A DNA stretch of 30,022 nt from Planctomycetota bacterium. Lineage in GTDB: Bacteria; Planctomycetota; Planctomycetia; Pirellulales; JADFKK01. The stretch covers positions 1 to 30,022 of the forward strand of contig JADFKK010000067.1 of assembly GCA_022564995.1 (NCBI GenBank), given 5' to 3'. A program made the translations under genes and the position numbers. Positions 8,036 to 26,954 of this stretch are shown piece by piece. Below the pieces are notes generated by a model, which saw only the letters and a program-made list of their open reading frames with translations, searched no databases and had not been told where the DNA came from. The first letter of the stretch is position 1. Every line of letters begins with the position of its first letter.

Positions 8036-8150
8036 TCCATTCAAATCCGAAATCCGAAATCCGAAACAAATTCAAAGCACGAATGTCACAAACCTTCCGA
8101 ATGTCCGACGTTTTTGACATTTGAGATTTGGATTTTTTGATTTGTTTCGC
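8036..8150. repeat. AT-rich imperfect inverted repeat built from tandem heptamers in the flotillin to giant-ATPase intergenic region.
   Basis: (AAATCCG)x3 followed by AAAC lies at 8044-8067, with inverted degenerate copies (TTTGAGA, TTTGGAT, TTTTTGA, TTTGTTTCG) at 8110-8148. Three AATGTC/GACATT motifs sit in the centre, and an A8 tract lies at 8163-8170. The local GC is far below the genome background. Confidence 0.7.
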
Positions 8151-8290
8151 CGTGTTGTATTGAAAAAAAAGGCGTACTTCGGATTTGCGATCTCGTTAAA
8201 CTGCCCAAATTGTTCATGCGCGACCTCTAGGTGGTCAGCAGTGACCCGTTACGAGTCATTCGGCGCCCGCCCTCAATCCAAGAACACACG

Positions 8291-11200
8291 ATGGCTCAAG
8301 CCGACCAAGCCAAGACCGGCTCCGCCGAGATTCAACTCGAAAGCGGCACTTACGAGATCCTGCGCAATCGGCTGGTGGCGCATGCCAAGGAGCTGCGCGG
8401 CCGGCTGGACCAATTGAACGTGGCTCGCAAGGAAGTCTTCGGCGCGATCGAGACGACGCTGCTGGCGACCGATCGGATCACGACCGAGCATAACTGCCAG
8501 CCGCGCGACATGGTCTCTCTCGGCGACGTGTTCCTGTTCGGCTACAACATCCACTTCGGGCTGAAGAGCGAAACGACGCTGTCGGACGTGTTCGCCGCCT
8601 ATGAAATGCGGGATCACTCGTTTCACCAGCAGTCGCTGGCGATGCTCGAAGACCAGCAATTCAAGCGCGACTTTCAGGAGGTCTATCGCTACTACAAAAA
8701 GGCCGTCTTTGCGAAGTTCTTTCTCACCGGCCCGCATCTGTACATGGTGTTTCGGGTCGGCCTCAACGTCAGCGACATCAAGACGTTCAAGTGGTTGCTG
8801 CGCGACGGCACGCTGAGCTACGTCGACAACCGCAGCGATCACGAGGTGCAATTCCCGCCGCAGCACGAGTTTGAGTGGACGCGAACGCATCGCGATTTGC
8901 AACAGTCGGGCTTGCACCCGCACATTTCGATCGAAGATCGGCTGTTCGTCGAGACAATCGGCGGCGATCTGACGATCAAGATCGAAAACAACACGGAATC
9001 CGGCGAGGGCATCTACGCCGAGCCGGTCGACAATCCCGACCAGACGCTCGACGACGCCGTGATTTACTACGCCGTGGTCGGCAACATCATCCTGCTGAAG
9101 ATTCGGCCTTATCAGGAAGAGAATTTTCGCTACATCGTCTACAACGAAAAGATCCAACAGGCCCGCCGCATCGACGCCATCGAACATGCCTGCGTGCTGT
9201 TGCCGGACGATCACGGGCTGATTTTCTCGAACGGATACTATCTGCAAAACGGCGAACAAAAGACGTTCGACCACGCGCTGCAGGACATGTTGTTCGAGCG
9301 GCGCATCGCGGCCCCCAACGGCGAAGATTACCTGTACGTGTTTTACAACCGCAAGACGGGCGTCTACGTCCTGCTGCGGTATAACGTGATCGAGCAGAAG
9401 GTCGACACGCCGCTGATCTGCAACGGCTCGTCGCTGTTTCCGGCGGGCGAACTGGTTTGTTTTCGCAGCGACGAGGAGGCAAAAAAACATCACACGTTGC
9501 AGGTCTGGCAAACGCCCTACGTCGACGAAGACTTCCTGCCGCAAACCAACACCGACTCGCTGCTGTTCAAAATCGGCAATCGCGACATGGTCCGCGGCAT
9601 GGCCGAGTGTCACGAAGTGCTGGGCCTGATCGAGAAGGAAGACACTTACGCCGGGCTGTACATCGATCTGGTTAAGAAGGCCGGCGACATCCTCGACGCT
9701 TACTTCTGGATCGATCACGAAGAAACCTTTAAGCCGAGCGAGCCGCTGCAGGAAATCAAGCGGACAGCCGCCGCCGCGATCGATGAATTCGAAAAGGTCG
9801 TCAAGGTCAAGCAGGCCACGCTCGGCCAGTGCAAAGAGGTCGAGGGCCGCACGCGCAAGATTCTCACCGACGTTCACCACCGCCGCTACGAGAGCATCGA
9901 CGAATTCGTCTCCTCGCTGGGCGATCTGCGGACGGTCCGCGGCGCGATCATTTCGCTGCGCGAGCTGCGCTACGCCGACGAGACACTCATCGAATCGCTG
10001 GAAGCCGAAGTCATCGATCAGTCGGACCGGCTGGCGGCGCGCTGTGTCGACTTCCTGCTCAGCCCGGGCGCGCTGGCGCCGTACCAGCAGCGTGTGGCCG
10101 GGCAGAAACAAGCCGTCGAGCCGCTGGAAAAAGTCGCCGACGCCCGCAAGCTCGAAGAGCAGGTGACCGCCAGCGCCCAAGAACTGGAAATGCTGATCGA
10201 GATCGTCAGCAACCTGAAGATCGACGACGCCACCCAGCGAACGGCGATCATCGACAGCATCTCGGACATCTTCGGCCAGGTCAACGCGACCCGCTCAGCC
10301 CTTAAAGCGAAAATTCACGACCTGCTGTCGGTCGAAGGCATCGCCGAGTTCGGCTCGCAGATCAAGCTGCTCGATCAGAGCGTGGTCAGCTATCTCGACC
10401 TCTGCAAGACGCCCCAGCGGTGTGAAGAGCTGCTCACCAAGGTGATGATCCAGATCGAGGAGATGGACGGTCGTTTTGCCGAATTCGACGAATTCATCGT
10501 CCAACTCAGCGAAAAACGCGACGAGATTTACAACGCCTTTGAATCGCGTAAGCTGGCGCTTATCGAGAAGCGCAACCGGCGCGCGACGGCCTTGATGAGC
10601 GCCGCCGAGCGAATCCTCAAGGGCATCAAGACGCGGGTCGAAAGCCTCGACTCGATCGACGCGATCAACAGCTATTTCGCCTCGGACCTGATGATCGAGA
10701 AGGTCCGCGATCTGGTCGAACAACTCAATGAGCTGGACGACACGGTTAAGGTCGACGACGTCCAAAGCCGGCTCAAGACGGTCCGCGAAGACGCCGTTCG
10801 CCAATTGAAAGACCGCCAGGAACTGTTCGTCGACGGCGAGAACATCATTAAATTAGGCAACCACCAATTCACCGTCAACATTCAAGCCCTCGACCTCACC
10901 ACGGTGCAGCGCGACGGCGCGATTCATCTGCACCTGACCGGCACCAACTTCTTCGAGGTTCTCGACGACCAGCAGCTCAACGCCGCCCGCGACGTCTGGC
11001 AGCAGGAAGTCGTCTCGGAAAACGACGCGGTCTATCGGGCGGAGTATCTCGCCTACCTGTTAATGCAACACATGCGGCACGACGCCGACGCCCGCGAGGC
11101 TTTCTTGAAGGCGGACGGGCCGGCCCGCGTCAAGCAGGTTCAGCGATTCATGGGCCCCCGCTACCGCGAAGCCTACGTCAAGGGCGTCAGCGATCACGAC

Positions 11201-13717
11201 GCGGCGAAAATTCTGTTTGAACTGCTGGAGATGAACGCCAACGTCGGGCTGCTGCGGTTTCACACCCAAAGCCGTGCCCTGGCCTGGGTCTATTGGCACC
11301 ATTTTGCCGAACGCGAACAAAAAGCACTGATCGAGGACAAGCTCAAAGGCTTCGGCGTAATCTCGCAGTTGTTCCCCGAAACGAGCCAGCAGGCCGCCTA
11401 CGTCGACGAACTGCGGGTGTTGCTCGACGCATTCGTGAGCCAGAACGATCTGTTCGATGCATCGCTCGCCGCCGAGGCCGCTGAGTATTTGTTCTGCGAG
11501 CTGGCCCACGGCGGGCCGTTCTGCACGAGCCGCACGGCGGCCGATTTGCACGAGGCCTTTCATCGTCACCTGCGACAAAACAGCTTCGAGCCGAAATTCA
11601 ACGAGACGGTCGAGTCGGTGAAGCGCGACGCCACGAGCCATTTCATGTTGACCCGCGATTGGGTCGAGGCCTTCCTCGACGGCGACGCGGCCTCGTCCGA
11701 ATATCGAGACGAACTGGCCACCGTGTTGATGCACGGCAAGCTCGAAGGCCGCTCAATCATCGATGGCCAAGTGACCTGCACGATTGGCGACATGGTCGGT
11801 TCTCACGCGGTCATCCAATCGGGATCGTACGCGCTACACTACAACCACTTCATGCGGAAGCTGGCCGATTACCAGCGCGACGTCGTGCCGCGCTTCGAGG
11901 CCTTTCACGACCGCAAGACGGCCCTGGTCGACGCCGCCCGCGACGACATGCGGCTCGACGAATTTCGCCCCCGGGTGCTGACCTCGTTCGTCCGCAACAA
12001 GCTGATCGACACGGTCTATCTGCCCATGATCGGCGACAACCTGGCCAAGCAAATCGGCGCGGCCGGCGAACAAAAGCGAACCGACCGCATGGGCTTGCTG
12101 CTGTTGGTCTCGCCGCCCGGTTACGGCAAGACGACGCTGATGGAATATCTGGCCAATCGCCTGGGCGTCATCTTCATGAAGATCAACGGCCCGGCCATCG
12201 GACATCAGGTCACCTCGCTAGATCCGGTCGAGGCGCCCAACGCCGCGGCCCGCGAGGAAGTCGAAAAATTGAACCTATCGCTCGAGATGGGCGACAACGT
12301 GATGATCTATCTCGACGACATCCAACACTGCAATCCCGAATTCCTGCAAAAGTTTATCTCGCTGTGCGATGCCACCCGCAAAATCGAGGGCGTCTACAAA
12401 GGTCGCACGCGAACCTACGACTTGCGCGGCCGCAAGGTCATCGTCGTGATGGCCGGCAATCCGTACACCGAAAGCGGCGAGCGTTTCCAAATTCCCGACA
12501 TGCTCTCGAACCGGGCCGACGTCTACAACCTGGGCGAGATCATCGGCGACTCGGCCGAAGCCTTCGAGATGAGCTACCTGGAAAACTGCCTGACCAGCAA
12601 TTCGGTGCTCAACAAGCTGGCCAGCCGCAGCCAAAAAGACGTGCAAGCCGTGATCAAGATGGCCGAAACGGGCGACCGCCAGGGCATCGAACTGGAAGGC
12701 AGTTACTCGCCCGACGATCTGAACGATTTCGTCGTCACGATGAAGAAGCTGACCAAGGTCCGCGACGTGATTCTCGCCGTGAATCGCCAATACATCGATT
12801 CCGCCGCCCAGTCGGACGACTACCGCACCGAGCCGGCCTTCAAGCTGCAGGGCTCGTACCGCAACATGAATCGCATTGCCGAGAAGGTCGTGCCGATCAT
12901 GAACGACGACGAGTTGCAACGGCTGATTCTCTCGAACTACGAAAACGACGCCCAAACGCTGACCTCCGACACCGAATCGAACCTGCTCAAGCTCCGCGAG
13001 TTGCTCGACATCCTCACCGACGAGGAAGCCCGCCGTTGGAACGACATCAAGCGGACCTTCCAGGAAAACGTCAAGATGAAGGGCATCGACGCCGACGATC
13101 AGGTCGGTCAGGTGATCGTCCAGATGCGCTCCTTCAACGACGGACTGTACGCCATCCAGCAAGGCATGGCCGCAGGCGTCAAGTCGCTCACCGAGGCCGA
13201 CGGCAAGAGCGACGAGGAGCAGCAGCAAGTCGCCGCGCTCGTCGAACACCTAACCGGGCTCAACACGGGTCTGAACGACATCCGCGACACACTCTCCGGC
13301 GGGCTAACGAAAATCCTCGAAAACGCCGCGCAGCCGTCTGAGCCGGTCGGTCCGACGGAGGCGGAAACCATATCTGCGCAGATGGCCCCCGCGGCCGAGG
13401 CGATGATGGCCCTGGCCGATGAGCTGCGCGAGTTGACCACCGGAACGATCCCGATCGATCCCAAGCGTCAGACGCGCATCTCGGTCACTCACAAGGTGCC
13501 CCGTTCGATTTTGGCGGTCATCGAAAGCCAGTTCCAACTGATGAAAGACTCAATCGCCCCGGTGCTCGCCGCCTCGCACGAGCAAAGCGCGGAACTCCAA
13601 CAACTCCGCGAAACCCTCCGTTCGTCTCTCGACAAATCGGCCGAATTTCTGGAAGAACTTCAAGCAGCGAGACACAAAGCAGACAAGCGGGCGCAGGCGA
13701 CTCGCCCGCCGGCATGA
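8291..13717 (+). CDS. Giant cytoplasmic protein of about 1,808 aa from the ATG at 8291 (1,828 aa from the GTG at 8231). It has a single AAA_5/MoxR-type ATPase module in the C-terminal third and extensive coiled coils. Its family is unassigned.
   Basis: There is no signal peptide or transmembrane helix. Walker A (LLLLVSPPGYGKTTLMEYL) lies at about nt 12100-12140, Walker B (VMIYLDDIQH) at about 12301-12330, and an ATQNP-like sensor (VIVVMAGNPYTESGERFQIPDMLSNRADV) at about 12440-12530. The central and C-terminal regions are long and helix/coiled-coil rich. The N-terminal 470 aa resemble no domain I can name. The gene is co-oriented 300 bp downstream of flotillin. Confidence 0.8.
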   Translation: MAQADQAKTGSAEIQLESGTYEILRNRLVAHAKELRGRLDQLNVARKEVFGAIETTLLATDRITTEHNCQPRDMVSLGDVFLFGYNIHFGLKSETTLSDVFAAYEMRDHSFHQQSLAMLEDQQFKRDFQEVYRYYKKAVFAKFFLTGPHLYMVFRVGLNVSDIKTFKWLLRDGTLSYVDNRSDHEVQFPPQHEFEWTRTHRDLQQSGLHPHISIEDRLFVETIGGDLTIKIENNTESGEGIYAEPVDNPDQTLDDAVIYYAVVGNIILLKIRPYQEENFRYIVYNEKIQQARRIDAIEHACVLLPDDHGLIFSNGYYLQNGEQKTFDHALQDMLFERRIAAPNGEDYLYVFYNRKTGVYVLLRYNVIEQKVDTPLICNGSSLFPAGELVCFRSDEEAKKHHTLQVWQTPYVDEDFLPQTNTDSLLFKIGNRDMVRGMAECHEVLGLIEKEDTYAGLYIDLVKKAGDILDAYFWIDHEETFKPSEPLQEIKRTAAAAIDEFEKVVKVKQATLGQCKEVEGRTRKILTDVHHRRYESIDEFVSSLGDLRTVRGAIISLRELRYADETLIESLEAEVIDQSDRLAARCVDFLLSPGALAPYQQRVAGQKQAVEPLEKVADARKLEEQVTASAQELEMLIEIVSNLKIDDATQRTAIIDSISDIFGQVNATRSALKAKIHDLLSVEGIAEFGSQIKLLDQSVVSYLDLCKTPQRCEELLTKVMIQIEEMDGRFAEFDEFIVQLSEKRDEIYNAFESRKLALIEKRNRRATALMSAAERILKGIKTRVESLDSIDAINSYFASDLMIEKVRDLVEQLNELDDTVKVDDVQSRLKTVREDAVRQLKDRQELFVDGENIIKLGNHQFTVNIQALDLTTVQRDGAIHLHLTGTNFFEVLDDQQLNAARDVWQQEVVSENDAVYRAEYLAYLLMQHMRHDADAREAFLKADGPARVKQVQRFMGPRYREAYVKGVSDHDAAKILFELLEMNANVGLLRFHTQSRALAWVYWHHFAEREQKALIEDKLKGFGVISQLFPETSQQAAYVDELRVLLDAFVSQNDLFDASLAAEAAEYLFCELAHGGPFCTSRTAADLHEAFHRHLRQNSFEPKFNETVESVKRDATSHFMLTRDWVEAFLDGDAASSEYRDELATVLMHGKLEGRSIIDGQVTCTIGDMVGSHAVIQSGSYALHYNHFMRKLADYQRDVVPRFEAFHDRKTALVDAARDDMRLDEFRPRVLTSFVRNKLIDTVYLPMIGDNLAKQIGAAGEQKRTDRMGLLLLVSPPGYGKTTLMEYLANRLGVIFMKINGPAIGHQVTSLDPVEAPNAAAREEVEKLNLSLEMGDNVMIYLDDIQHCNPEFLQKFISLCDATRKIEGVYKGRTRTYDLRGRKVIVVMAGNPYTESGERFQIPDMLSNRADVYNLGEIIGDSAEAFEMSYLENCLTSNSVLNKLASRSQKDVQAVIKMAETGDRQGIELEGSYSPDDLNDFVVTMKKLTKVRDVILAVNRQYIDSAAQSDDYRTEPAFKLQGSYRNMNRIAEKVVPIMNDDELQRLILSNYENDAQTLTSDTESNLLKLRELLDILTDEEARRWNDIKRTFQENVKMKGIDADDQVGQVIVQMRSFNDGLYAIQQGMAAGVKSLTEADGKSDEEQQQVAALVEHLTGLNTGLNDIRDTLSGGLTKILENAAQPSEPVGPTEAETISAQMAPAAEAMMALADELRELTTGTIPIDPKRQTRISVTHKVPRSILAVIESQFQLMKDSIAPVLAASHEQSAELQQLRETLRSSLDKSAEFLEELQAARHKADKRAQATRPPA
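12050..12700 (+). other. AAA_5/MoxR-like P-loop ATPase module of the giant protein.
   Basis: It carries GYGKTT (Walker A), a hhhhDD Walker B, and an NP(Y) sensor-1 with an arginine-containing segment downstream. This is the MoxR/dynein-related subtype rather than the classical AAA SRH. Confidence 0.65.
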
Positions 13718-13805
13718 ATGAGGGTTGACGGGTGTGGCTAGGGTCGACCTGCGCTTTAACGAGCGACGATCCCCAGCGGCGCGTTTCATAAAACAGAGAT
13801 CACCC

Positions 13806-13840
13806 GTTGACTCGAATGGTAAGATTCGTGGTACAATCAT
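13806..13840 (+). promoter_or_regulatory. Sigma-70-like promoter candidate: TTGACT, a spacer, then TGgTACAAT (extended -10).
   Basis: ttgactcgaatggtaagattcgtggtacaat lies about 8 nt upstream of the small ORF ATG at 13844. It gives a near-consensus -35 and -10, though the 19 nt spacer is long unless the -35 is shifted. Confidence 0.3.
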
Positions 13841-13843
13841 TCC

Positions 13844-13996
13844 ATGGCGACCGTCAACTATCTCGACCGCTTTCTCGACCCGATAAGTGATGCCTTCACT
13901 CCCCAGATGGCTCGCACTATCGTGGAGCTGCGCGCCGAACCGGAGTTGCAGGCCCACGTAGAATTGCGAGGGCTGTGGCTAGACGGACGTTAGACG
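13844..13996 (+). CDS. Small ORF of 50 aa (MATVNYLDRFLDPISDAFTPQMARTIVELRAEPELQAHVELRGLWLDGR*) at the edge of the low-GC island. It may be a gene remnant or a small regulator.
   Basis: It is absent from the ORF track, probably because it is under 60 aa. It has a good promoter-like sequence upstream and is convergent with the island gene. I recognise no homology. Confidence 0.2.
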
Positions 13997-14024
13997 TTCT
14001 GATCGGGTGAGTGCTTGGCGTCGA

Positions 14025-15911
14025 CTATGCCAAGCTCAACATGAATTCAACCCGTTCCTTGTCGATTACCTCGGTTCGATTGAGCAGTCGAATCGGAAAC
14101 GGCTTCTTCGGCTCGATAGTTTTCCATTGATCCGCAAGGTGCTTCAGCGCACTCGCCTCGATCAGAGCTACGTCCCAGTTCGTTTTTGCTTTGTATCGAT
14201 GCGCGAGTTTGATGGATTGCGGTGTGAAGGACGGCCCGATGACCAAGAAGGCGAGCGGCTGATTGCCTTTCTCCCTTTCTTTGCGCAAGTAGGAGTCAAA
14301 TTGATCGTCAAGGTGGTCCTGGAGATTCACTTGAGCTTCAACCGACTTGTTGTCCCACAGAATCACTTGATTGTTGTCGAGAGGGATTCTGCCGTCGGCC
14401 TTAGTCACTTTCTGTCGTTTGTCGATCTTGACGTTCAACATCACCTCGAACAGAAAGTCTGTTGCTTCCTCGAACTGGTGTTCGATGTCGAGATCCTTCA
14501 CGATGAGCTTTTTCGCCTTCAGGTCAGAATACGATCTGCTTGCGAGAAGTTCGTAGTTATTGTACCACTCTTCCCGCTTGTCCTGCGTCGCGCGTTCTTC
14601 AAAGGTCAGATCGTCGTAGAATTCGATAAGTCGGTTTTGGAAATCTGACTTGTTCCCGGAACTCTTGAGACCGACTAGACGACACATGTCAGACAACTTT
14701 GATCGATCCAAGTCGTCCAGAATGTTACTTGGCTTAATGTCGCTCGTGACGATACGCTCGATGAGGTCAGCCTTGTTTCCGTAGCGATCCATATTTTTCG
14801 CCTGAAGAAAGGTTCGTAGGTCAGGCAATCGAACGGCGTCATGCTCCAGGATTCTGCGATAATTGGTCCGCTGCAACTCCAAGCCGTTGCTCTGCTCGCG
14901 GAGAACCATAACGACCTCGAACGGAATCACATCGATGTTTCGGTTGTTCTCGTCCCGATAACTCCAGAGAAGCGATTCGCGCTGAAGCTCCTTTCGTGCA
15001 TCGTGTACTTCATCTCGCGAGTGTAGCGCGCACTTCGCCTTTGGGAACCTGTGAAGATGAGCACCAATGAGCCAGTGTTCTTCGCGCGAGATGTTTAAGT
15101 GCCCCCTTAGAACTCGCAGGAGTGCAGCCTCATCATAAGAAACATCGTCCTGATTGCGCCAAGCCGCATCCAGAACAAGGCGATAGGTATCGTAATGGTG
15201 CCACCGCATGGCGTCATGTTTCTTCGGATCGAAGAAGTCGAGCTTTTTTGCTCGTTTAACGAGAGCCTTCTCATACTCAAGCACTTTTTCCTCCAGGCGG
15301 TTCTCATCAAGGCTGTGAGTCTCTTCCTGAAGGAGTATTGCGAACAGGATGATCTCTTTCAGATTGCGGCGGTCAACGTCGGGATCGATTTTTTCGAGGC
15401 TTTCGATGATCCTTCCTTTGGCGACCAGCTTCTTGGCGTCCTTGAGAATGCGATTTGTCAAGTCGCCGTCGTTCATGCCTTTCGTCGATTCAAGGAATTG
15501 CCCGAGTATCCGTAGCTTCACCCTCTTGAGCATGTGAGGCGCGATGTCTGCGACCCGTTTACACAGCGCTCGACGGCCGAGCAGTCGCTGTTCTTTGGCG
15601 TCACGTTTTGGCTCACGGCGCTTCTTTCGTTTACGCGCCGTTGGTTGAGGCGGCGGCACTAGTCCGGTGTCCTTGGTCGCGTCAGCTTGATTGCTGTCGA
15701 CCGTTTCGCTTGTGCGTAGCACGTCGTCGTCGGACGTTTCCTCGACGAGTAAACCTGGCTCATCGTCATCGCTAGCCTCTCCAGCAACCACAATACTCTG
15801 CGGCTCCGTTGTCGCGTCGGATGACGACTCTACGTCGTGGTGGATGTCGTTTGCCGACCGCGATGCGTCGGACTCAACTTGTGGACTTGGTGTTGGAATA
15901 TCGTTCGACAC
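14025..15911 (-). CDS. Island protein of 628 aa. It has an acidic disordered N-terminus and a basic KRKKRR patch, two tandem SAP DNA-binding motifs, and a C-terminal domain that looks like a PD-(D/E)xK restriction-endonuclease-like nuclease.
   Basis: The gene is about 47-50% GC against roughly 65% in the flanks. SAP motif 1 is LPDLRTFLQAKNMDRYGNKADLIERIV and SAP motif 2 is LDRSKLSDMCRLVGLKSSGNKSDFQNRLIEFY; both fit L..L.V.EL...L..RGL...G.K..LI.RL. The C-terminal domain has E/D-rich FEEATDFLFEVM, then ADGRIPLD, then VILWDNKS (a D-x-K motif), then Q/E-rich LAFLVIGPSF. The start codon is probably GTG, so the true N-terminus is uncertain. Confidence 0.75.
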   Translation of the reverse strand: MSNDIPTPSPQVESDASRSANDIHHDVESSSDATTEPQSIVVAGEASDDDEPGLLVEETSDDDVLRTSETVDSNQADATKDTGLVPPPQPTARKRKKRREPKRDAKEQRLLGRRALCKRVADIAPHMLKRVKLRILGQFLESTKGMNDGDLTNRILKDAKKLVAKGRIIESLEKIDPDVDRRNLKEIILFAILLQEETHSLDENRLEEKVLEYEKALVKRAKKLDFFDPKKHDAMRWHHYDTYRLVLDAAWRNQDDVSYDEAALLRVLRGHLNISREEHWLIGAHLHRFPKAKCALHSRDEVHDARKELQRESLLWSYRDENNRNIDVIPFEVVMVLREQSNGLELQRTNYRRILEHDAVRLPDLRTFLQAKNMDRYGNKADLIERIVTSDIKPSNILDDLDRSKLSDMCRLVGLKSSGNKSDFQNRLIEFYDDLTFEERATQDKREEWYNNYELLASRSYSDLKAKKLIVKDLDIEHQFEEATDFLFEVMLNVKIDKRQKVTKADGRIPLDNNQVILWDNKSVEAQVNLQDHLDDQFDSYLRKEREKGNQPLAFLVIGPSFTPQSIKLAHRYKAKTNWDVALIEASALKHLADQWKTIEPKKPFPIRLLNRTEVIDKERVEFMLSLA

Positions 15912-16098: not shown

Positions 16099-16132
16099 GC
16101 ACCCAGCGAGCAAAACGCTGCGCTGGCTCTTG

Positions 16133-16294
16133 CCGGCTTTAGCCGGCTCCCTTGTCAGCCGCCGGCTTTAGCCGGTGGGACGGGTGGCGGCTCCCACGTT
16201 CGTCGTTAGCCGGCTTCAGCCGGCTTTCCTGTAGCCACTGGCTTTAGCCGTCGGCTTGTTCGTGCTCCAATGGAACCGGGCTAAAGCCGGCTGG
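16133..16294. repeat. Cluster of 5-6 copies of the palindrome CCGGCT-TT-AGCCGG and variants, which share the core GCTTTAGC/GCTAAAGC.
   Basis: ccggctttagccgg at 16133 and 16172; agccggcttcagccggcttt at 16207; ggctttagccgtcggc at 16241; gggctaaagccggc at 16277 in reversed spacer orientation. Confidence 0.75.
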
Positions 16295-16311
16295 ACACGA
16301 TTGCAGAGTTG

Positions 16312-16441
16312 GTGGCTACCGAAACCACCAGGCTTTGTCAGAAAACATCAGCCGCGACGCGTTAGCGTCCGGTTCTCAGCGTAACTCGTCGCCAAAACCG
16401 GGGGCTAGCGCCCCGCGGCTGACAAACCACCAGCTAAAGCT
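16312..16441. repeat. Related palindromes: TGGTGGCTACCGAAACCACCA, and a perfect 20 bp palindrome CCACCAGCT-AA-AGCTGGTGG at about 16422-16441.
   Basis: Inverted repeats read directly from the sequence. The second contains the same GCTAAAGC core as the CCGG-type copies. Confidence 0.7.
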
Positions 16442-16623
16442 GGTGGCTGACCGTGAAGCCGGCAGTCGGCCGCGATCCTCGACGACTGCACTCTACCTCA
16501 GAACAGGCGCGCCGGGCCGGTCGCGGCATGCGGAGCATGACCTACGCGCTTCCCTTGCGTTGATCGCATCACAGCGGATAATGACGGACGGTTTTCGATG
16601 GGGTGGAACCGGCCTTCCGCTCC

Positions 16624-18380: not shown

Positions 18381-18414
18381 TGGCCGTGATTCACTGGCCC
18401 TCTCAAGCCGACAT

Positions 18415-21400: not shown

Positions 21401-21834
21401 TTGACGCGATCCGATTTGTCGAGCATCAGATTGCCGGGCTTGACGTCGCCGTGAACGATGCCGTTTTGATGCAGAAAGTGCAGCGCGTGCAGCGTGTAGA
21501 TCAGCGTGAGTCGCAAAAAGTCGACGTCGATCGGCTGGCCGTGCAATTGCTGCTGCAAGCCGCCCTTCATCAACTCCAGAACGAGCCAGCCTCGCTCGCG
21601 GACGATGTCGTAGATCGTCATGATGTTGGGATGTTCGAGCGAGGCCAACAATTGGGCCTCCTGCCAATAGCGTTCCAATTGTGCCGGGTCGTCGAGATAT
21701 TGCTGATGGATCTGCTTGATCGCCACCTCGCGATTGAGCTCCAGATCGCGGGCGCGATAGACCGTGGCGAAATCGCCCTTGGCGATTTGGTCGATAATCT
21801 GATATCGCTCGTGGGGCTGCATGGCTGGGATCAC
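18415..21834 (-). CDS. Hanks-type Ser/Thr protein kinase of 1,139 aa. The domain order is N-terminal kinase, a single transmembrane helix, beta-rich repeats, a caspase-like (peptidase C14) His/Cys domain, and a C-terminal alpha-helical TPR-like region.
   Basis: Kinase motifs are GDFATVYRA, VAIKQI, HRDVKPGN-type HGDVKPGNLML, DFGIARR and TKYMAPE. The transmembrane helix is VLTIAAVSVSLLLCVGMFVA at about nt 20860-20920. The caspase-like block at about nt 19400-19870 has WAIIIGQGEYD...LIVYFVGHGY...KILLLDTCHEGRG, a His-Gly then D-x-C-H dyad pattern. The C-terminus has TPR-like helices. Confidence 0.9.
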   Translation of the reverse strand: MIPAMQPHERYQIIDQIAKGDFATVYRARDLELNREVAIKQIHQQYLDDPAQLERYWQEAQLLASLEHPNIMTIYDIVRERGWLVLELMKGGLQQQLHGQPIDVDFLRLTLIYTLHALHFLHQNGIVHGDVKPGNLMLDKSDRVKLGDFGIARRVAGDDGSLLKGTTKYMAPEVVSDQFGPVGPHSDLYSLGFAAFDLLCGEQFESLFPGLNIIGRDQQVAWMMWHAAADRRLPEINRVLEGVPADLVTVIEKLTQKDPAKRYRTAEEAVVDLRTLAQLADQSPAEVEAARAEEEARKAKRKRVLTIAAVSVSLLLCVGMFVADKVFPQTETIQTDVKNKLPSEGTLEHKDVRLNSIWLSVPGSIDSVRVDINPQTDDIFLNDRKVQLQDLKVGDAIVIRILDAGSAKQITAKRPEAVAASGRIAAIDTEARKIKIELTGAGADDPPLEIYLPQNFEIKLNGSANTITGSGGGGRAVGLEDLKQGDEVSLGHVARGDGRMATSLSATRLTAAEGYVIAIDTEKHELKLRLGPGNSAPVRTLPLADDCPITLNKLSQVNGKILALGDLRAGDHVSINHDWQIRKIDADRVFHHTGNVTRVAYEDRSVFLSLSGQDNPVKFSVRSDCRITVGEKNTPVDLYFLRQGDRVTVAHDSPELDRPQAMALSVARQADRSTWAIIIGQGEYDNDAISPLPRATTDAGLVRDVLVEHYRVDENQLHYKPNATRTRLEQDVSRMLKLVKPEDQLIVYFVGHGYRDASGTAYLATKEFDLDRMAATGLSLRWLVGQMEASAAKEKILLLDTCHEGRGKDLRRQPSSAELAESLRTSPGRPVSTSVNVVASCARGQRAVVKKDGSVGLFAQAAAEALMCGPGVDKDRNHRLNTDELFAAVLKDLTAKTAGGRRPQTPVRFVPDATLQRLSPEAKEAILTLLAVRKHPNRNVYLNAFNDADDLARSEPEPRLAYGLVLLKYGKTPLSKREFEDVLFDHPDSLLAYHALAWQNFSLGKLNEGVKYLEKLVKALPKAKPDTPAAAYARHIFEWSGALREYALGAAKSPLTPDDLKPLDDAIVARGKEEQQAFDLYKKGIKSVRDDLKDINTKIAKAVDPGVKAKLNLDRRRLTYYTSFDFDLAEALLRASLDE

Positions 21835-22715
21835 TCGCGCCGCAAAATGTTGATTAACGCTTCCAGATTCTCGTCGCTGGGCGCCGACCCGGTCACTTGG
21901 CCGGTCACGCCAGCGTACTTATTCTTACCCTCGGCATGTAACATGTCTAGCACCTGCTTGTAGAGCATTTTTTCGGATTTTTCATCGCCACTGGAATGCT
22001 CCTGTAGCGCCTCGCGAATCAGCAGTTGATAAGGCTGCAACTGCGAGGTCTCGGACTGCTCGCCAATGTAGTAGGCCTCGAGCGATTCCCGCGATTCTTG
22101 CTTGCTCCTGCTTTCGCTGCGCGATGTAGACATATCGACCAACAGCAGCAGCACGCTAAAGCCGATGCTCACCACCAGTGCGACAATCAACAGCGGCGAG
22201 CTGCCCGAGGAGGAGACTTCCTCGGTTTTTTCCTTGGCATCGGCCTCTCGCAAGACCAACTCCGGCAACTGGCCATCGGCGCCGAGTTGAATTTTCGTCT
22301 CCGTCCGCTCGGCCGTGATGAACTTCGCTTGCTTGGCCTTGCGGCGCTGGCGTTTTGGCTGGCGTTTTGGCTGGACGGGCGGCCCAGTGGACGGATCAGC
22401 GGTCGGCACGTCTGGCGACGGAGTGGGCAACACCGTGGGCGGCTCGGCCGGATTGACGGCTGCGGCAGCCACTTTGGCGGAATCCCGCCCCTTGACGCTC
22501 TTCAATCCCGCCGGCACGACGCCTGCCCGACGCTTCGGCGTGTCCGGCGGCGGAGGCGGCGACGGAGGTGGCGACGTCGCTGGCGTAGAACTTTCGCCGC
22601 CAAGCGACACGGGAAACTGGCTCTTGCATTGCGGACAGGAGGCCAGTTGGCCGACCAATTCATCCGGCGCGGTCAGCTCCGAGTTGCAACCAGGACATTT
22701 TACTTGGACGGGCAT
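21831..22715 (-). CDS. Membrane protein with an N-terminal zinc-ribbon (CPGC...CPQC), a Pro-rich linker, a basic patch, one transmembrane helix and a C-terminal domain of about 100 aa. Its function is unknown and it sits inside the tad operon.
   Basis: MPVQVKCPGCNSELTAPDELVGQLASCPQCKSQF; PPPSPPPPPDTP; KRQPKRQRRKAKQAKF followed by the TM LLIVALVVSIGFSVLLLLV. Its start is immediately downstream of the tadC stop and its end overlaps the kinase start by 4 nt. Confidence 0.7.
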   Translation of the reverse strand: MPVQVKCPGCNSELTAPDELVGQLASCPQCKSQFPVSLGGESSTPATSPPPSPPPPPDTPKRRAGVVPAGLKSVKGRDSAKVAAAAVNPAEPPTVLPTPSPDVPTADPSTGPPVQPKRQPKRQRRKAKQAKFITAERTETKIQLGADGQLPELVLREADAKEKTEEVSSSGSSPLLIVALVVSIGFSVLLLLVDMSTSRSESRSKQESRESLEAYYIGEQSETSQLQPYQLLIREALQEHSSGDEKSEKMLYKQVLDMLHAEGKNKYAGVTGQVTGSAPSDENLEALINILRRE

Positions 22716-22721
22716 AAACGG

Positions 22722-23675
22722 TTATAGCTCAAAACCGGAGGTGAGGAAATTCAAGACAAACGGGCCGAGCATGATTAACACGGTGGCCGCCATCACCAAC
22801 ACGCCCGGCAGCAGCATGTTGACGGCCGATTCGCCGGCGATTGTTTCGGCCCGCTGGCTGCGCTTGACGCGGAGCACGTCGGCCGTAGCGCGCAAAATGC
22901 CGGTCAGCGGCGTGCCCAACTCTTCGCTCTGAATGATCGTACCGATGATCGAATTGATCTCGTCGTCCGATAGCCGGCGACGCATCGACTCGAACGCCTC
23001 GCTACGGGCCTTGCCCATGTTCATGTCGGTCAGCACGCGGCCGAACTCCGTGGAGATGGGGTGTCCCTCGAACTCGATCACCGTCTGCTTGAGCGCTTGC
23101 AGGAAGCTCGATCCGGCCTCCATCAGCAGCGTGAGCAGATCGAGCACAAACGGCATTCGGCGTTTGATCTCGACCAACCGGCGCTCGGCCAGTCCAGCCA
23201 ACCGGCGGCGCAACAGCCAGACGGTTAGGCCGGCCAGCATCAGAGCCGACACCGCGCCGACCGATCCCATCCAATCGATGCAGAAGTACAGATAGACCGG
23301 CAGCAACAACAGCGAGATCACCTGGCAGCGAGCCAGATACTCTTCGGCCAGCCAATAACGCGATAGCCCGGCCGCTTGGATCTGTCGGCCGATCTCCGGC
23401 AGGCGGGTTGGAACGGCGGCGCGATTGAGCTTGGCGAAAAACTGCACGACCGGCTGCAACAAGCGATAGATGACGTCGCCGCGGCGCAGCGCGTTGATGC
23501 GGCTCACGTCGTAACGCCATTCGTCCTCTTGAGCAACATCGTCCGAGGCCAGCGCCGACAGCACCCACCACAGCAGCGCAGCGACAGCGCCGCCGGTCAG
23601 TCCACAGGCAGCCAGCGCCAAGGGGTCAATCACCGCGAGCGGTGCGATCGAGATGTTCAGGCTAGATGTCAGCAC
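22722..23675 (-). CDS. tadC: TadC-like Flp pilus assembly inner-membrane platform protein (T2SS-F/GspF family).
   Basis: It has the GspF-type topology with a cytoplasmic helical domain (FVLDLLTLLMEAGSSFLQALKQ...) between transmembrane segments. It overlaps the tadB stop by 14 nt and follows tadB in the canonical order. Confidence 0.8.
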   Translation of the reverse strand: MLTSSLNISIAPLAVIDPLALAACGLTGGAVAALLWWVLSALASDDVAQEDEWRYDVSRINALRRGDVIYRLLQPVVQFFAKLNRAAVPTRLPEIGRQIQAAGLSRYWLAEEYLARCQVISLLLLPVYLYFCIDWMGSVGAVSALMLAGLTVWLLRRRLAGLAERRLVEIKRRMPFVLDLLTLLMEAGSSFLQALKQTVIEFEGHPISTEFGRVLTDMNMGKARSEAFESMRRRLSDDEINSIIGTIIQSEELGTPLTGILRATADVLRVKRSQRAETIAGESAVNMLLPGVLVMAATVLIMLGPFVLNFLTSGFEL

Positions 23676-24582
23676 GCATGATCCTCAATGCCCACAGGTA
23701 AGCCACGACGTTCAACACCACGGCCGCACAAAGAATTAACTGGCCGGGCAGCGTGTTGAACAGCAGCGTGACGTTTTCCGGAGTGACGAACGCATACAAA
23801 ATCAAAATGACCGGAGGCACCATGGCCATGTAAACGGCCGACTTGCGAGCCTGGGCCGTTTCGCTGCGAACCTTTCGCTCGAGCCGCTGCATCTCGACCA
23901 CGCTCTTGGCGATTCGCTCGACCGCCTCATTCAGTCGGCCGCCGCTCTCTCGGCTGGCCAACAGGGCCGCGGCGAAGAGCAGAAAATTTTCGCTCTTGAG
24001 CCGCTCCTTGGCCTCGGTCAGCGTGCGCTCCAGCGGCTTGCCCATCTCGTACTCGCCGACGATCTGCTGGAATTCCTGATTGATCGGACGGGGACAGTCT
24101 TTGGCCAACATTTCCAGCGCCTGGGCCAGCGACAAGCCGGCCCGGATCGCGCTGCTGAACGTAACCATCGCATCGGCCAGTTGTTCCTCGATTCTATCGC
24201 GCCGCCGGACCGAAAGCCTGCGCACGATGTACCAAGGCCCGGCGGTCATCGCTACGGCGGCCAGCACTCCCAACGGAAAGCTGTCGAGCGCGAGCCACAG
24301 GCAAACGAACGTGGCGCCGATCAGGCCGGCCCACAGATTGATCCAGCGGCGCAAGTTTCGCGACCCGATTCGCAGGCCGCGCAGCCGTTCGGTCAAGTCG
24401 TTCTCGACCAAATCGCAAGCCTGCCCGTAGCCCGGCCGGATTGCGAAAGCGGCACCCGCCACGCAAACGCCGGTGATCAGGTTGACGGCTAATAGCCCCA
24501 GGTCATTCACGGTGGGCTCTCGATGTTTCGTTGGGTGGTTGAAGTGGATTGGTTCGTAAAGGTCGACAGGTAGGGTGAGCAA
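23662..24582 (-). CDS. tadB: TadB-like Flp pilus assembly inner-membrane platform protein (T2SS-F family).
   Basis: T2SSF-like cytoplasmic domain (MVTFSSAIRAGLSLAQALEMLAKD...) with N- and C-terminal transmembrane helices. It is immediately downstream of cpaF. Confidence 0.8.
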   Translation of the reverse strand: MLTLPVDLYEPIHFNHPTKHREPTVNDLGLLAVNLITGVCVAGAAFAIRPGYGQACDLVENDLTERLRGLRIGSRNLRRWINLWAGLIGATFVCLWLALDSFPLGVLAAVAMTAGPWYIVRRLSVRRRDRIEEQLADAMVTFSSAIRAGLSLAQALEMLAKDCPRPINQEFQQIVGEYEMGKPLERTLTEAKERLKSENFLLFAAALLASRESGGRLNEAVERIAKSVVEMQRLERKVRSETAQARKSAVYMAMVPPVILILYAFVTPENVTLLFNTLPGQLILCAAVVLNVVAYLWALRIMRADI

Positions 24583-24597
24583 CTCGTGGGTCGAAAG

Positions 24598-24684
24598 ATT
24601 TGTTATTTGTTATTTGTCATTTGTCATTGGTCATTGAAAGCTGAAAATGACGAATGACGGATGACAAATAATGAATGATAAATT
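24598..24684. repeat. AT-rich imperfect inverted repeat made of tandem heptamers (TTATTTG/TCATTTG/TCATTGG on the left, TGACGAA/TGACGGA/TGACAAA on the right) between cpaF and tadB.
   Basis: tttgtcatttgtcattggtcatt, then gaaagctgaa, then aatgacgaatgacggatgacaaa: stems of about 23 bp with 3 mismatches and a 10 nt loop. The local GC is about 30% inside a 65% GC operon. Confidence 0.8.
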
Positions 24685-24712
24685 CGGCGCGTCGTGGCAG
24701 CGATCACTCCCC

Positions 24713-26629
24713 TCACGATTTCCCGTTGCTTTGTTCTTCTCCCTCCCAGGCTCCATATAAAAACTCAAGCTCCAGCAGTTGTTTCTCCACCAGCGAATCG
24801 ACAAACGTCGGCAGGTAGCCGGTCGGTCGCAGGCTCTTTCCGTCGCGGCGATTGAAAATGTCGGTGAGGATCGGTTCGATGGTGTCGGGATGAACCCCGG
24901 AAACTTCGGTGATTTGTGCCACCACGCGCTGCCCGCTGGGAAGCCGGTCGATGTGGACGATCAGGTCGATGGCCGAAGCGATTTGCCGGTGAATCGAACT
25001 CATCGGCAACTCGGCGCCCATCAGCATCAACAGCTCCAGCCGGGCGATCACCTCTTCGCTGCTGTTGGCATGAACCGTGGTCATCGAACCGTCGTGGCCC
25101 GTATTCATCGCCTGGATCATGTCGAGCGCCTCGCCGCCGCGACATTCGCCGACCACAATCCGATCGGGCCGCATGCGCAGGGCGTTCTTCACTAAATCGC
25201 GTATCGTATACGCACCGGCCCCTTCGACATTGGCCGGCTTGCTCTCCAGGCTGACCACGTGCTCCTGATGCAGCCGCAATTCGGTCGTGTCTTCGATCGA
25301 AACGATCCGCTCTTTATGCGGAATAAAGCTACTCAGCACGTTGAGCATCGTTGTTTTGCCCGAGCCGGTGCCGCCGCTGATCAGAATGCTTTTGCGATCG
25401 ACCACGCAGGCTCGCACAAACATGGCGGCGGCCTTGCCGATGGTTCCCAGTTCGATCAGGTCGTCCATCGTCATCCGCTGAATTGGAAACTTGCGAATCG
25501 TCAAACAGGGCCCGAACACGGCCAAAGGTGGAATGATCGCATTCACCCGCGAGCCGTCGGGCAAGCGCGCGTCGACCAGCGGCTGGCTTTTGTCGATCCG
25601 CCGGCCGACCTGGGCAACGATTCGCTCGATGATCGATTCGGTAACTTTTTCCGAGATAAACCGCCGGCCGGAGTTCTCAATCACCCCGTCGCGCTCCACA
25701 TAGATTTGATCGCTACGGACCACCATGATTTCGCTGATGGTCGGGGCGCGGAGCAAATCTTGCAGCGGCCCGAAGCCGAAGACGATGTCCTTGAGATCTT
25801 TCTTGAGCATCCGCAGCACCAGATACTTGCGCAGCTCGCCGTGCAGATGCGGCCGAACCAGCGGAAATACGTCGATGAAGCGATCCTCGACACGCTGGAT
25901 TTTCTGGCTGACGTCGGGCAGCTTTTCGAGATCTAGTTTTTCCCGCAGGAATTGCAGCAGGCTGTGTAGCTCGGTCTCGCGCTCGGGCACCAACGTGGCC
26001 GGGATGTCGAATTCATTGGAGGTGAGCGCTGCCAGATCGAACACCTCGTCGGCGCCGGTCTCCATGATGAGTTGATTGATCAGATGGTCGCGCAGCCCCA
26101 GGCCGGTAATCTCCTCCAGCAGCGAGTCGTTGATATCGCCGAACAGGTTCATCTCGCGGCAAACGTCTTCGATGTTGTTTTCCAGCGACAAAATGCTCTC
26201 GGGCGTGGCTCCGCTGGCGGAATCGGTCTCGTACAGATCGAGGCGTTCGAGCAGCTTTTTGTGAATCCGCAATTCCAGATCGGCCACCGTGGTGCGCAGA
26301 TGGGCTTCGAGCTCCTCGCGGCTGATGCCGGCCACCTCTTCGGTCTCGAAGCTGATCGTGTAGGGCCAGATGCGGACCTTGACGCTGGAAGTGAACTTGG
26401 CCCGCTCTCCGCCGAGCACTTCCGTATCGCCGACCAGGCAGCTATTCAGGCCGACGTTTTCCAGTTCCATTTCGCCGTTATGAACGCGCACCACGGCGTG
26501 CCGGCGCGAGACCAGCGGGCTGCGCAGCACCACGCTGTTGGTCTCTTCGCGGCCGATGTAAAACTCATTGGCCTCGATTTCGACCACACTGCGGCGGCTT
26601 TCGTTGACTTTGTTAAACCAGATTTTCAT
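24713..26629 (-). CDS. cpaF: CpaF/TadA secretion ATPase (VirB11/GspE superfamily) with an N-terminal FHA-like domain.
   Basis: ATPase core: KSILISGGTGSGKTTMLNVL (Walker A), SIEDTTEL, RIVVGECRGGEALDMIQAMNTGHDGSMTTVHANS. The N-terminal 100 aa contain FYIGREETNSVVLRSPLVSRRHAVVRVHNGEMELENVGLNSCLVGDTEV, which fits the FHA pattern GR...D..L....VSR.HA... Confidence 0.88.
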   Translation of the reverse strand: MKIWFNKVNESRRSVVEIEANEFYIGREETNSVVLRSPLVSRRHAVVRVHNGEMELENVGLNSCLVGDTEVLGGERAKFTSSVKVRIWPYTISFETEEVAGISREELEAHLRTTVADLELRIHKKLLERLDLYETDSASGATPESILSLENNIEDVCREMNLFGDINDSLLEEITGLGLRDHLINQLIMETGADEVFDLAALTSNEFDIPATLVPERETELHSLLQFLREKLDLEKLPDVSQKIQRVEDRFIDVFPLVRPHLHGELRKYLVLRMLKKDLKDIVFGFGPLQDLLRAPTISEIMVVRSDQIYVERDGVIENSGRRFISEKVTESIIERIVAQVGRRIDKSQPLVDARLPDGSRVNAIIPPLAVFGPCLTIRKFPIQRMTMDDLIELGTIGKAAAMFVRACVVDRKSILISGGTGSGKTTMLNVLSSFIPHKERIVSIEDTTELRLHQEHVVSLESKPANVEGAGAYTIRDLVKNALRMRPDRIVVGECRGGEALDMIQAMNTGHDGSMTTVHANSSEEVIARLELLMLMGAELPMSSIHRQIASAIDLIVHIDRLPSGQRVVAQITEVSGVHPDTIEPILTDIFNRRDGKSLRPTGYLPTFVDSLVEKQLLELEFLYGAWEGEEQSNGKS

Positions 26630-26652
26630 GCGTGCAGTATCAATTCAGATCG

Positions 26653-26679
26653 GTGCCTGGGGCAGGTTTCCTAACCTGC
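26653..26679 (-). promoter_or_regulatory. Conserved 22-nt hairpin motif GCAGGTT-AGGA-AACCTGC-CCCA, 28 nt upstream of the cpaF start codon on the coding strand.
   Basis: The reverse complement of 26658-26679 is gcaggttaggaaacctgcccca. This is 21/22 identical to 16650-16671 upstream of the PfkB-family gene. Confidence 0.5.
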
Positions 26680-26705
26680 CACCGACAAGGCGCAGGGTGC
26701 ATCGC

Positions 26706-26954
26706 GAGGCTTGAGGCTTGAGGCTTGAGGCTTGAGGCTTGAGGCTTGAGGGGTCGAGGGGTTGAAGGGTTGAGGGGTTGAGGGGTGAGAAAACTAGCAA
26801 GAACACAACAGGACGAACACGGATCAGAAAACAGCATGATTCCGTCAATTTTCCTCCTAAACCGCTCACTCCTTACTCCTCACTTCTCAAGCCTCAACTC
26901 CTCAACTCCTCACTCCTCACTCCTCAAGCCTCAAGCCTCAAGCCTCAAGCCTCA
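26706..26954. repeat. Large imperfect inverted repeat of about 250 bp (a potential cruciform or long hairpin). Its arms are tandem heptamer/octamer arrays, (GGCTTGA)x5-6 then (GGGGTTGA)x4, with inverted (TCAACTCC/TCACTCC)x4 then (TCAAGCC)x5. A spacer of about 78 bp separates the arms.
   Basis: The left arm is 26706-26787 and the right arm is 26865-26954, its reverse complement with a G-rich/AG-rich substitution. The repeat lies between the cpaB stop (26952) and the cpaF start (26629). Translating it gives the spurious LKPQASSLKPQASSL ORFs in the track. Confidence 0.85.

Follow-up and report, generated by a model that had tools for sequence, protein, structure and literature searches.

We examined a 30,022-nucleotide (nt) stretch of Planctomycetota DNA (GenBank assembly GCA_022564995.1, contig JADFKK010000067.1; hereafter, the window) in which three intergenic spacers contain inverted repeats with arms built from tandem arrays of a 7-nt unit. 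Locus 1 lies between a flotillin/YqiK-family gene and a gene for a giant ATPase with DUF3686 and AAA domains. Loci 2 and 3 lie within a conserved string of tad genes, on either side of a cpaF-type ATPase gene, which locus 2 separates from a tadB-like gene and locus 3 from a gene for a 232-amino-acid (aa) protein (Table 1). All three loci are noncoding spacers flanked by co-directional genes, and the neighboring open reading frames (ORFs) have Pfam or homologue support. The three architectures had been reported in a preliminary description made from the sequence, and Tandem Repeats Finder (TRF), an inverted-repeat search, and direct reading recovered each of them in its place. Across the window, TRF detected period-7 arrays at these three loci only, each of them as an inverted pair. 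The GC content of the window is about 59%, not the 65% background given earlier.

TRF assigned 3.4 copies to locus 1, 5.4 and 4.7 copies to the two arms of locus 2, and 6.6 and 8.6 to 9.6 copies to those of locus 3. When predicted RNA folds were compared with those of shuffled sequences, loci 2 and 3 folded far better (z = -5.45 on the gene-sense strand and z = -11.7, respectively), whereas locus 1 taken alone did no better than chance (z = -1.5). At locus 2, two arms of 38 nt with 82% complementarity enclose a 10-nt loop, and the plus-strand fold reaches -46 kcal/mol with 7 G-U pairs. Shifting the register of the arms by 7 nt leaves complementarity nearly the same (81% versus 82%), and the arms can therefore pair in several registers.

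At locus 3, the earlier picture of heptamer arms around a short center needed revision. The inverted heptamer arms are present, but the center spans 67 to 128 nt and the inner units have a period of 8, with five 8-nt GAGGGGTT-type units forming the inner part of the G-rich arm. The order of blocks, with 7-mers outside and 8-mers inside, is mirrored between the arms, and only the right, C-rich arm carries a higher-order duplication of 37 to 44 nt. The two arms are therefore related by inversion, yet they change independently. The best arm pair covers 60 nt with 88% complementarity, the predicted fold has an energy of -152.7 kcal/mol, and the first triplet of the array doubles as the stop codon of the 232-aa gene (TGA, minus strand, 26952-26954). 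Two independent metagenome assemblies with the same cpaF are interrupted by the right arm at an identical endpoint, 250 nt upstream of cpaF, which illustrates that heptamer hairpins disrupt short-read assembly. Both assemblies confirm locus 3 from its left arm through the center and into the beginning of the right arm. Because two independent assemblies carry loci 2 and 3, their structure is not an artifact, although the copy number of the right arm of locus 3 is less certain, since both assemblies end within it. A separate small hairpin (TGCCTGGGGCAGGTT / AACCTGCCACCGACA) occupies 26654-26687, between locus 3 and the cpaF start codon.

To characterize the distribution of such elements, we ran TRF on 80 genome and 80 metagenome loci around relatives of cpaF, amounting to 1.89 Mb. 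Among arrays of at least three copies, period 7 was the commonest (n = 79), followed by periods 6 (n = 30), 9 (n = 28), and 8 (n = 15). Block-shuffled sequence yielded 6.8 period-7 arrays, so that the excess over shuffled sequence proposed earlier as a test was indeed found. In the part of the genome set outside the longest ORFs, about 10% of its sequence, there were 54 period-7 arrays and no more than 15 of any other period. An inverted partner within 300 nt, scoring above all shuffles, accompanied 36 of the 79 period-7 arrays, compared with a direct partner for 2 of the 79, and arrays of periods 6, 12, and 15 had no inverted partners. In an independent set, 60 of 241 arrays had inverted partners. 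The 79 arrays represent 56 different heptamers, and the pooled set contains about 70 unique heptamer hairpins; the idea that the architecture recurs irrespective of sequence, and in intergenic, operon-internal positions, was thus borne out on both counts. The elements are spread unevenly. Period-7 arrays were absent from 121 of the 161 loci, some loci of about 22 kb had five to nine of them, and the elements are sporadic and confined to some lineages. As a separate observation, ATTGCAA arrays (L037, 13995-14114; L054, 5364-5427) are self-complementary, the reverse complement being a rotation of the unit, and a single such array can fold on itself without a partner.

The hairpins obey a nearly absolute rule of arm order. 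We pooled the unique heptamer hairpins of the window and of loci L003 to L248, and 58 hairpins of the main class had arms of opposite G-C skew. The G-rich arm was on the 5' side in 56 of these, and the C-rich arm came first in 2 (binomial P about 1e-14); counted by contig, the ratio was 31:0. The same order prevailed between co-directional (35:1), convergent (9:0), and divergent (7:0) genes. Generic hairpins from the same planctomycete DNA, defined as perfect nonheptamer inverted repeats, were split 77:59, and the G-first rule is therefore specific to the heptamer class. Furthermore, the 5' arms are purine rich (0.63 versus 0.37) and contain 4.7 GGA, GAG, or AGG triplets per arm, compared with 0.3. 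Within the window, the G-first order is clear at locus 3 and ambiguous at locus 2, which has a G-first version in the related contig L160, and locus 1 belongs to an A-first family treated below. We also considered what might set the order. A polarity relative to gene direction was rejected, because the reverse complement of a G-arm followed by a C-arm keeps the same order, and stop codons as the driver were weakly supported (35 versus 19).

With cpaF as the anchor, we compared loci 2 and 3 with orthologous junctions in relatives from Pirellulaceae, Thermoguttaceae, and other Planctomycetota metagenome-assembled genomes. In relatives with 77 to 83% CpaF identity, the spacers at both cpaF junctions measure from -19 to about 130 nt, and many of the genes are adjacent or overlapping. 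The exceptions are L007 and L012, with cpaF-tadB spacers of about 360 nt made of unrelated sequence. None of the relatives in this range of identity has the hairpin of locus 2 or locus 3, and because of this absence both tad hairpins must have been gained recently. The two window elements thus occupy spacers that are short or overlapping in relatives, and no further copies of either were found elsewhere in the sequence examined.

A much closer relative, L160, with 99% CpaF identity over the residues covered, has the locus 2 hairpin at the same place and with the same family of units. Its version is longer by 14 nt, equal to two units in the arm nearest tadB, and differs in addition by several transitions. 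The search for heptamer copy-number changes in relatives that the preliminary description had recommended therefore gave a clear answer at locus 2, namely, a difference of exactly two units. Likewise, L048 and L064 have 8.4 and 5.6 copies at a common site. The comparison of copy number in unit steps is based on locus 2 and on this pair; contig L249 is identical to the window at locus 1. At the orthologous spot just upstream of tadB, the unit of locus 2 also occurs as TGACAAC in two copies (L085) and as AATGACG in 2.3 copies (L012), which is what slippage growth from a local seed would be expected to leave as a trace. From these comparisons, we infer that slippage in 7-nt steps creates and resizes the arrays. 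As an observation apart, all 7 mismatches between the arms of locus 2 are G-T on the plus strand and fall within one arm (24646-24683), and, set against the more perfect palindrome of L160 (1052-1160), they resemble transitions in a single direction.

Locus 1 had been counted as one of three members of a family without a shared motif. Instead, it belongs to a family with a conserved core and the opposite arm polarity. Its 5' arm contains a perfect (AAATCCG)3.4 array at 8043-8066 according to TRF, which continues into CGAAACAAATTCAAAG, and a profile of family arms matches 8041-8085 (nhmmer, E = 2e-9). The inner part of the 3' arm is 79 to 87% complementary to the 5' arm and includes CGAAACAAAT on the minus strand at 8140-8149. 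A 23-nt insertion (8150-8172) divides the 3' arm, so that the element reaches 8195, where its outer fragment matches the family consensus ...TTTGTTTCGGATTTCG... Despite the poor fold, locus 1 is real, because its sequence matches a conserved family elsewhere. Specifically, inverted pairs that match its left arm are present in L068, L021 (a locus identical to L092), L040, L102, and L023, and the elements span 8041-8195 in the window, 6719-6869 in L021, 6698-6867 in L040, 509-677 in L068, 955-1196 in L102, and 2782-2904 in L023, where the copy has fewer units. The arm consensus is AAAAT.CGAAATCCGAAT.TCGAAATCCGAAACAAATTCAAA, with CGAA every 7 nt, and an invariant core 17-mer, CGAAATCCGAAACAAAT, is present on both arms. 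RNAalifold found no covariation in the family, the core being invariant. The A-rich arm comes first in 11 of 11 family members, and 10 of the 11 are C-first.

The family is dispersed. In L021, L040, L102, and L023, the element occupies an orthologous site some 3 kb upstream of cpaF, in the spacer separating a TadG-like gene from the next one, and the flanking proteins at this site are only about 60 to 80% identical among the three loci compared (L021, L040, and L102). The copies in the window and in L068 sit in unrelated contexts, that of L068 between convergent genes, so that the AAATCCG family is known from at least three gene contexts in several planctomycete genomes. Exact matches to CGAAATCCGAAACAAAT were found in 22 IMG/VR contigs (L163 to L183 among our loci); 18 of the 22 fit the arm profile, many of them with both arms, and some contigs have two elements each. 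At the junction between the flotillin and DUF3686 genes, the element is identical in L249, a contig of the same strain. It is absent from this junction in relatives with 83% and 75% flotillin identity, which have unrelated spacers of 120 and 60 nt. Since the family is present elsewhere and the orthologous junction is empty, locus 1 represents the recent gain of a member of a pre-existing family and not a private product of slippage. It is a lineage-specific copy of a family conserved in sequence and dispersed, and arrival as a unit is more likely than growth in place. One member of the family has a nested structure of its own: at the hairpin center in L102 (1000-1140) lies a GC-rich, self-complementary insertion of about 110 nt that is not present in the orthologues of L021, L040, and L023.

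Heptamer arrays also occur in phage-like contigs. Pure 21-nt arrays of each of the window heptamers were found in 15 to 26 IMG/VR contigs, a result that shows existence elsewhere and not preference. In 7 of 22 unique phage-contig cases (L185, L191, L193, L195, L197, L202, and L204), a single noninverted (AAATCCG)n array ends between -2 and +16 nt from an ORF-opening ATG, which suggests that such arrays are used as an A-rich 5' leader. One phage contig is L180 (IMGVR_UViG_3300037843_000663, 1-14211, GC 0.65), which encodes a terminase large subunit, a portal protein, an S49 protease, a major capsid protein, and a head-completion protein, and whose portal protein, in a search, matched only distant phages with at most 41% identity. 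Most of its gene junctions have heptamer hairpins, chiefly of TAGGAGT/AACTCCT. At several of these junctions, a TAGGAGT array opens with the stop codon TAG of the upstream gene, and 0 to 25 nt separate the last CTCC unit from the next ATG. Over 53 co-directional cases with heuristic gene calls, the median distances were 9 nt from stop codon to hairpin and 40 nt from hairpin to start codon.

Some of the annotation around the loci was revised in the course of this work. The name flotillin for the gene upstream of locus 1 agrees with the names given by the sources, but the protein has no Pfam match; its closest named relative, from Aeoliella mucimassa, is 77% identical. Together with the sources of the CpaF relatives, this relative places the window in a Pirellulales-type planctomycete. 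For the DUF3686 ATPase, the probable start is ATG 8291, the position assigned by gene callers in L249, L250, and L251, instead of GTG 8231, where the longest ORF begins. With this start, the spacer at locus 1 is 300 nt long. The label cpaB for the 232-aa gene next to locus 3 could not be confirmed, as the protein has no Pfam match. Exact-protein look-ups for four window proteins and the Aeoliella homologue returned no record. Two other repeats lie elsewhere in the window. In the spacer upstream of a 268-aa gene (29572-29667), two copies of a 30-nt direct repeat, CGTATTGTTCGCGGAGCGAACAACGACTAT, are 90% identical and overlap a 37-nt inverted repeat with 92% complementarity that is not heptameric. 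In a long divergent spacer (16120-16470), at least seven copies of GCCGGCTTTAGCCGGC occur in both orientations; the unit consists of two palindromic GCCGGC hexamers 10 nt apart, and the cluster looks like the repetitive extragenic palindromic (REP) type.

Table 1. Features of the three heptamer loci and their flanking genes in the window (MFE, minimum free energy)
Feature	Coordinates	Strand	Basis
Flotillin/YqiK-family gene, upstream of locus 1	5867..7990	+	Names given by sources; no Pfam match
Locus 1, 5' arm, A-rich, (AAATCCG)3.4 then CGAAACAAATTCAAAGCACGAAT	8041..8093	+	TRF, nhmmer, inverted repeat, alignment
Locus 1, 3' arm, inner part, T-rich, degenerate, ...GAGATTTGGATTTTTTGATTTGTTTCG	8110..8149	+	Inverted pairs I1, I5
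Locus 1, 3' arm, outer fragment, CGTACTTCGGATTTGCGATCTCG	8173..8195	+	Inverted pairs I2-I4 with 8042-8065; paired in MFE fold
DUF3686/AAA giant ATPase gene, downstream of locus 1	8291..13717	+	Pfam; L249-L251 gene calls, alignment
tadB-like T2SSF gene, downstream of locus 2	23662..24582	-	Pfam; gene-caller start = 24510
Locus 2, left arm, (ATTTGTY)5.4	24598..24635	+	TRF, inverted repeat
Locus 2, right arm, (AATGACR)4.7	24646..24683	+	TRF, inverted repeat, fold
cpaF-type ATPase gene (FHA + T2SSE), between loci 2 and 3	24713..26629	-	Pfam; related loci
Locus 3, G-rich arm, (GAGGCTT)6.6 at 26706-26751 then (TTGAGGGG)5	26706..26786	+	TRF, inverted repeat, fold
Locus 3, nonrepetitive center, 67 nt	26787..26853	.	
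Locus 3, C-rich arm, CTCACTC, CTCAAC, and (CTCAAGC)n units	26854..26954	+	TRF, inverted repeat

On balance, we lean toward reading the loci as heptanucleotide simple-sequence quasi-palindromes, that is, intergenic hairpins that are grown by slippage, filtered for the G-first order, and tolerated or possibly used as punctuation, with locus 1 as a separate case. Under this explanation, a short local sequence would be amplified in 7-nt steps through replication slippage, and an inverted copy of the array would form alongside it, presumably by inverted duplication, after which each arm could expand or contract. The arms of the resulting hairpins would be tandem arrays of 7-nt, and sometimes 8-nt, units. 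A filter would then leave, in nearly all survivors, the G- or purine-rich array on the 5' side and the C- or pyrimidine-rich array on the 3' side, on both strands. Whichever way such an element is transcribed, its C-rich, G-poor arm would be paired as soon as it is made, which may keep it from being a loading site for Rho or another single-strand target. Hairpin-forming G-first versions could accordingly persist as harmless insertions in transcribed spacers. An insert that folds on itself would also keep the flanking stop and start codons close. The tad and flotillin transcripts would then carry long stem-loops, often drawing the stop codon of one gene and the start region of the next toward the base of the stem. 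These stem-loops would be tolerated and possibly used as intercistronic punctuation that affects mRNA stability, processing, or translational coupling. Their density in a phage structural module makes it plausible that the elements act positively as intercistronic stem-loops.

Several points weigh against this explanation. The formation of RNA hairpins and their effect are predictions, and the polarity could stem from the generating mechanism and not from selection. Sense and antisense folding energies showed no consistent direction over 29 hairpins, and at locus 2 the favored strand is antisense in the window (-46 versus -23) and sense in L160 (-46 versus -39). We therefore rejected a folding-energy bias as a sign of RNA-level selection, and the fact that folding does not consistently favor the sense strand speaks against strong selection on any one RNA. 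The elements are dispensable, because the nearest relatives do without them, and the hairpin of locus 3 ends 76 nt before the cpaF start codon, so that direct coupling of stop and start is not obvious there. Finally, gene contexts outside the window come from a crude longest-ORF heuristic, the phage-contig loci were chosen for having arrays and their numbers are counts rather than densities, and some contigs may be near-duplicates.

A possible but less probable alternative is that the hairpins are adaptive intercistronic stem-loops, selected for differential mRNA stability or processing or for coupling between stop and start codons. With the same reserve, one can picture a terminating ribosome that melts the base of the stem and so frees a pyrimidine-rich leader ahead of the next start. 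The geometry of the gene junctions fits this alternative: hairpins begin a median of 9 nt past the stop codon, in L180 the stop lies inside the first unit of the array with an ATG close behind the last one, and most junctions in the compact structural module of that phage hold a hairpin. Shine-Dalgarno-like triplets abound in the 5' arms, and start triplets are scarce in the 3' arms. The adjacent or overlapping tad genes of many relatives suggest translational coupling before the hairpins arose, and the AAATCCG family has kept its sequence at an orthologous site in genomes where the flanking proteins have diverged. However, the polarity is strand symmetric and equally strong between convergent and between divergent genes, so that it does not depend on an adjacent start or stop. 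Mismatches of the G-U and A-C kinds show no sense-strand bias, sequence and copy number turn over quickly, and neither the absence of the elements from close relatives nor the distance of the locus 3 hairpin from the cpaF start is what selection for such a role would lead one to expect.

More tentative still is the idea of a polar punctuation system shared by Planctomycetes and their phages. Here, the purine array would be proximal to the stop codon and its pyrimidine complement proximal to the start codon, controlling Rho access, mRNA processing, or termination-reinitiation, and the A-rich-first family with CGAAATCCGAAACAAAT would play the reverse part, for instance that of a terminator, leader, or Rho entry site. 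If this were true, the near-absolute G-first rule (56:2) would be a signature of function and not of mutation.

It is unlikely that the loci as a whole are small nonautonomous mobile elements, such as MITEs (miniature inverted-repeat transposable elements), REPs, or REP doublets forming hairpins (REPINs), with repetitive terminal inverted repeats, and for locus 1 only is this origin credible. Both arms of the locus 1 family contain the invariant 17-mer. The family occurs in at least three unrelated gene contexts as well as in many phage-like contigs, of which some hold two copies; it is missing from the orthologous junction of relatives, and it includes the nested insertion of L102. In contrast, loci 2 and 3 are private sequences grown from local units. 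No target-site duplication or exact boundary could be defined, the number of units differs between copies as slippage predicts, and no transposase gene or gene for a REP-associated tyrosine transposase (RAYT) was seen nearby. REPs measure 20 to 40 nt, carry GTAG or CGTC heads, and are associated with RAYTs (PMC3733652); like bacterial interspersed mosaic elements (BIMEs), REPINs, and MITEs, they are palindromes scattered among intergenic regions and able to fold in mRNA, and the AAATCCG family is similarly dispersed and conserved. Here, however, the arms are tandem arrays of 38 to 100 nt with variable copy number, no second copy of locus 2 or locus 3 exists in the available sequence, and the GTAG and CGTC heads that tag REP superfamilies (PMC3733652) are not seen by eye in the family arm consensus. 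In a comparison with MITEs, the locus 1 family showed arms conserved across several contexts and genomes and an orthologous site without the element in relatives.

Phased binding sites in DNA or RNA, with one 7-nt unit per protein (e.g., a cold-shock-type OB-fold protein or an oligomeric RNA-binding regulator), are improbable as an explanation of the class. The AAATCCG family does keep one CGAA per 7 nt and an invariant core without covariation, so that sequence and not only pairing is conserved, and its single arrays end near an ATG in phage contigs. In addition, B. subtilis CspB is reported, in a statement carried by PMC4679880, to bind one heptamer per protein. However, more than 50 unrelated heptamers share one architecture, which no single sequence-specific factor explains, and we identified no candidate protein. 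The earlier remark that a 7-bp period presents tandem copies on rotating faces of the helix found no support, and none of the results pointed to the structure-specific binding protein or nuclease suggested in the preliminary description.

Equally improbable are transcription terminators, whether the main class is taken as an unusual intrinsic type or the AAATCCG family as bidirectional A-tract/stem/U-tract signals or Rho entry sites: the A-rich arm precedes a T-rich arm in all 11 family members, that of L068 lies between convergent genes, and locus 1 follows an NfeD-flotillin gene pair, but none of the three loci yielded an intrinsic-terminator-like site in a consensus scan for a short GC-rich stem with a T run, termination at loci 2 and 3 would sever the genes that follow them in the conserved tad string, and the family elements of L021, L040, and L102 are inside a tad cluster as well. 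A sigma-70 promoter scan likewise found nothing at the loci. Rfam had no match at the gathering score in the whole window, and at E values up to 1 it returned only subthreshold plant microRNA-precursor models, which are generic long hairpins. Nor do the loci resemble CRISPR arrays, as the 7-mers are contiguous and have no spacers between them.

Heptamer repeats have been known for decades as the favored noncoding tandem repeat of many bacteria, and the short tandemly repeated repetitive (STRR) sequences of cyanobacteria, from the work of Mazel et al. in 1990, are reportedly heptamers. The window loci share the traits of STRRs and of heptanucleotide long simple-sequence repeats (LSSRs), namely, tandem 7-nt units, noncoding spacers, and copy number that changes by whole units (locus 2; L048 and L064). 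As cited in two later papers, in many prokaryotes heptanucleotides outnumber every other kind of long simple-sequence repeat (Mrazek et al. 2007, via PMC4692102 and PMC4679880), and the same papers relay the proposal that heptamer repeats in general are caused by a polymerase slipping with a 7-nt footprint (PMC4692102, PMC4679880). In those systems, as in ours, 7 nt is the favored noncoding unit, and the families are intergenic and lineage specific. Their arrays are direct, however, and paired inverted arrays are few in Nostoc (PMC4692102), where heptamer repeats lie upstream of recF and recO (bioRxiv 10.1101/2022.06.06.494920). The TAACTGA direct repeats of Beggiatoaceae, cyanobacteria, and Bacteroidetes form arrays immediately 5' of start codons, for which a translational role has been proposed (MacGregor 2015, PMC4679880). 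The single (AAATCCG)n arrays upstream of ATG codons in phage contigs resemble them, whereas the TAACTGA type is almost always direct (one indirect array in 170), with one unit per genome and no hairpin architecture.

The closest precedent comes from Xanthomonas, and the architecture is therefore not unprecedented. In that genus, the GGGAATC repeats are intergenic tandem heptamers, often near stop codons (Rehm et al. 2015, PMC4692102). Each genome has 70 to 75 convergent pairs of closely spaced arrays that are capable of forming stem-loops, and the arrays are mostly transcribed and vary widely in length and sequence between close relatives at the same gene junction (PMC4692102). A convergent pair is clearly present at locus 3 and weakly so at locus 2, and the class as a whole follows it. 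The convergent G-rich orientation of Xanthomonas appears to be the same as the G-first polarity found in this work. Xanthomonas has one dominant G-rich unit capable of forming a G-quadruplex, whereas here there is a unit for each locus, 56 kinds in all, many of them AT rich and unable to form a G-quadruplex. Unlike GGGAATC or GGGANTN, the units AAATCCG, ATTTGTC, and GAGGCTT have no tract of three G's, the exception being the inner GAGGGGTT of locus 3. A polarity rule, phage-like contigs, and a conserved A-rich family are not described for Xanthomonas, and in the papers searched we came across no account of heptamer or hairpin repeats from Planctomycetes. Three things therefore appear to be new: the many-unit, hairpin-dominated form in Planctomycetes and phage-like contigs, the near-absolute G-first polarity, and the conserved A-first CGAAATC family.

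In this Pirellulales-type lineage and in phage-like contigs, heptamer arrays are mostly hairpins and are made from many different units, so that architecture can be separated from sequence. Any mechanism proposed for them, mutational or selective, must account for a near-absolute and strand-symmetric polarity, and the conserved family of opposite polarity provides a natural contrast to the G-first class. If the polarity reflects avoidance of exposed C-rich RNA, the elements would offer a natural view of Rho surveillance in a phylum in which gene expression has received little study.

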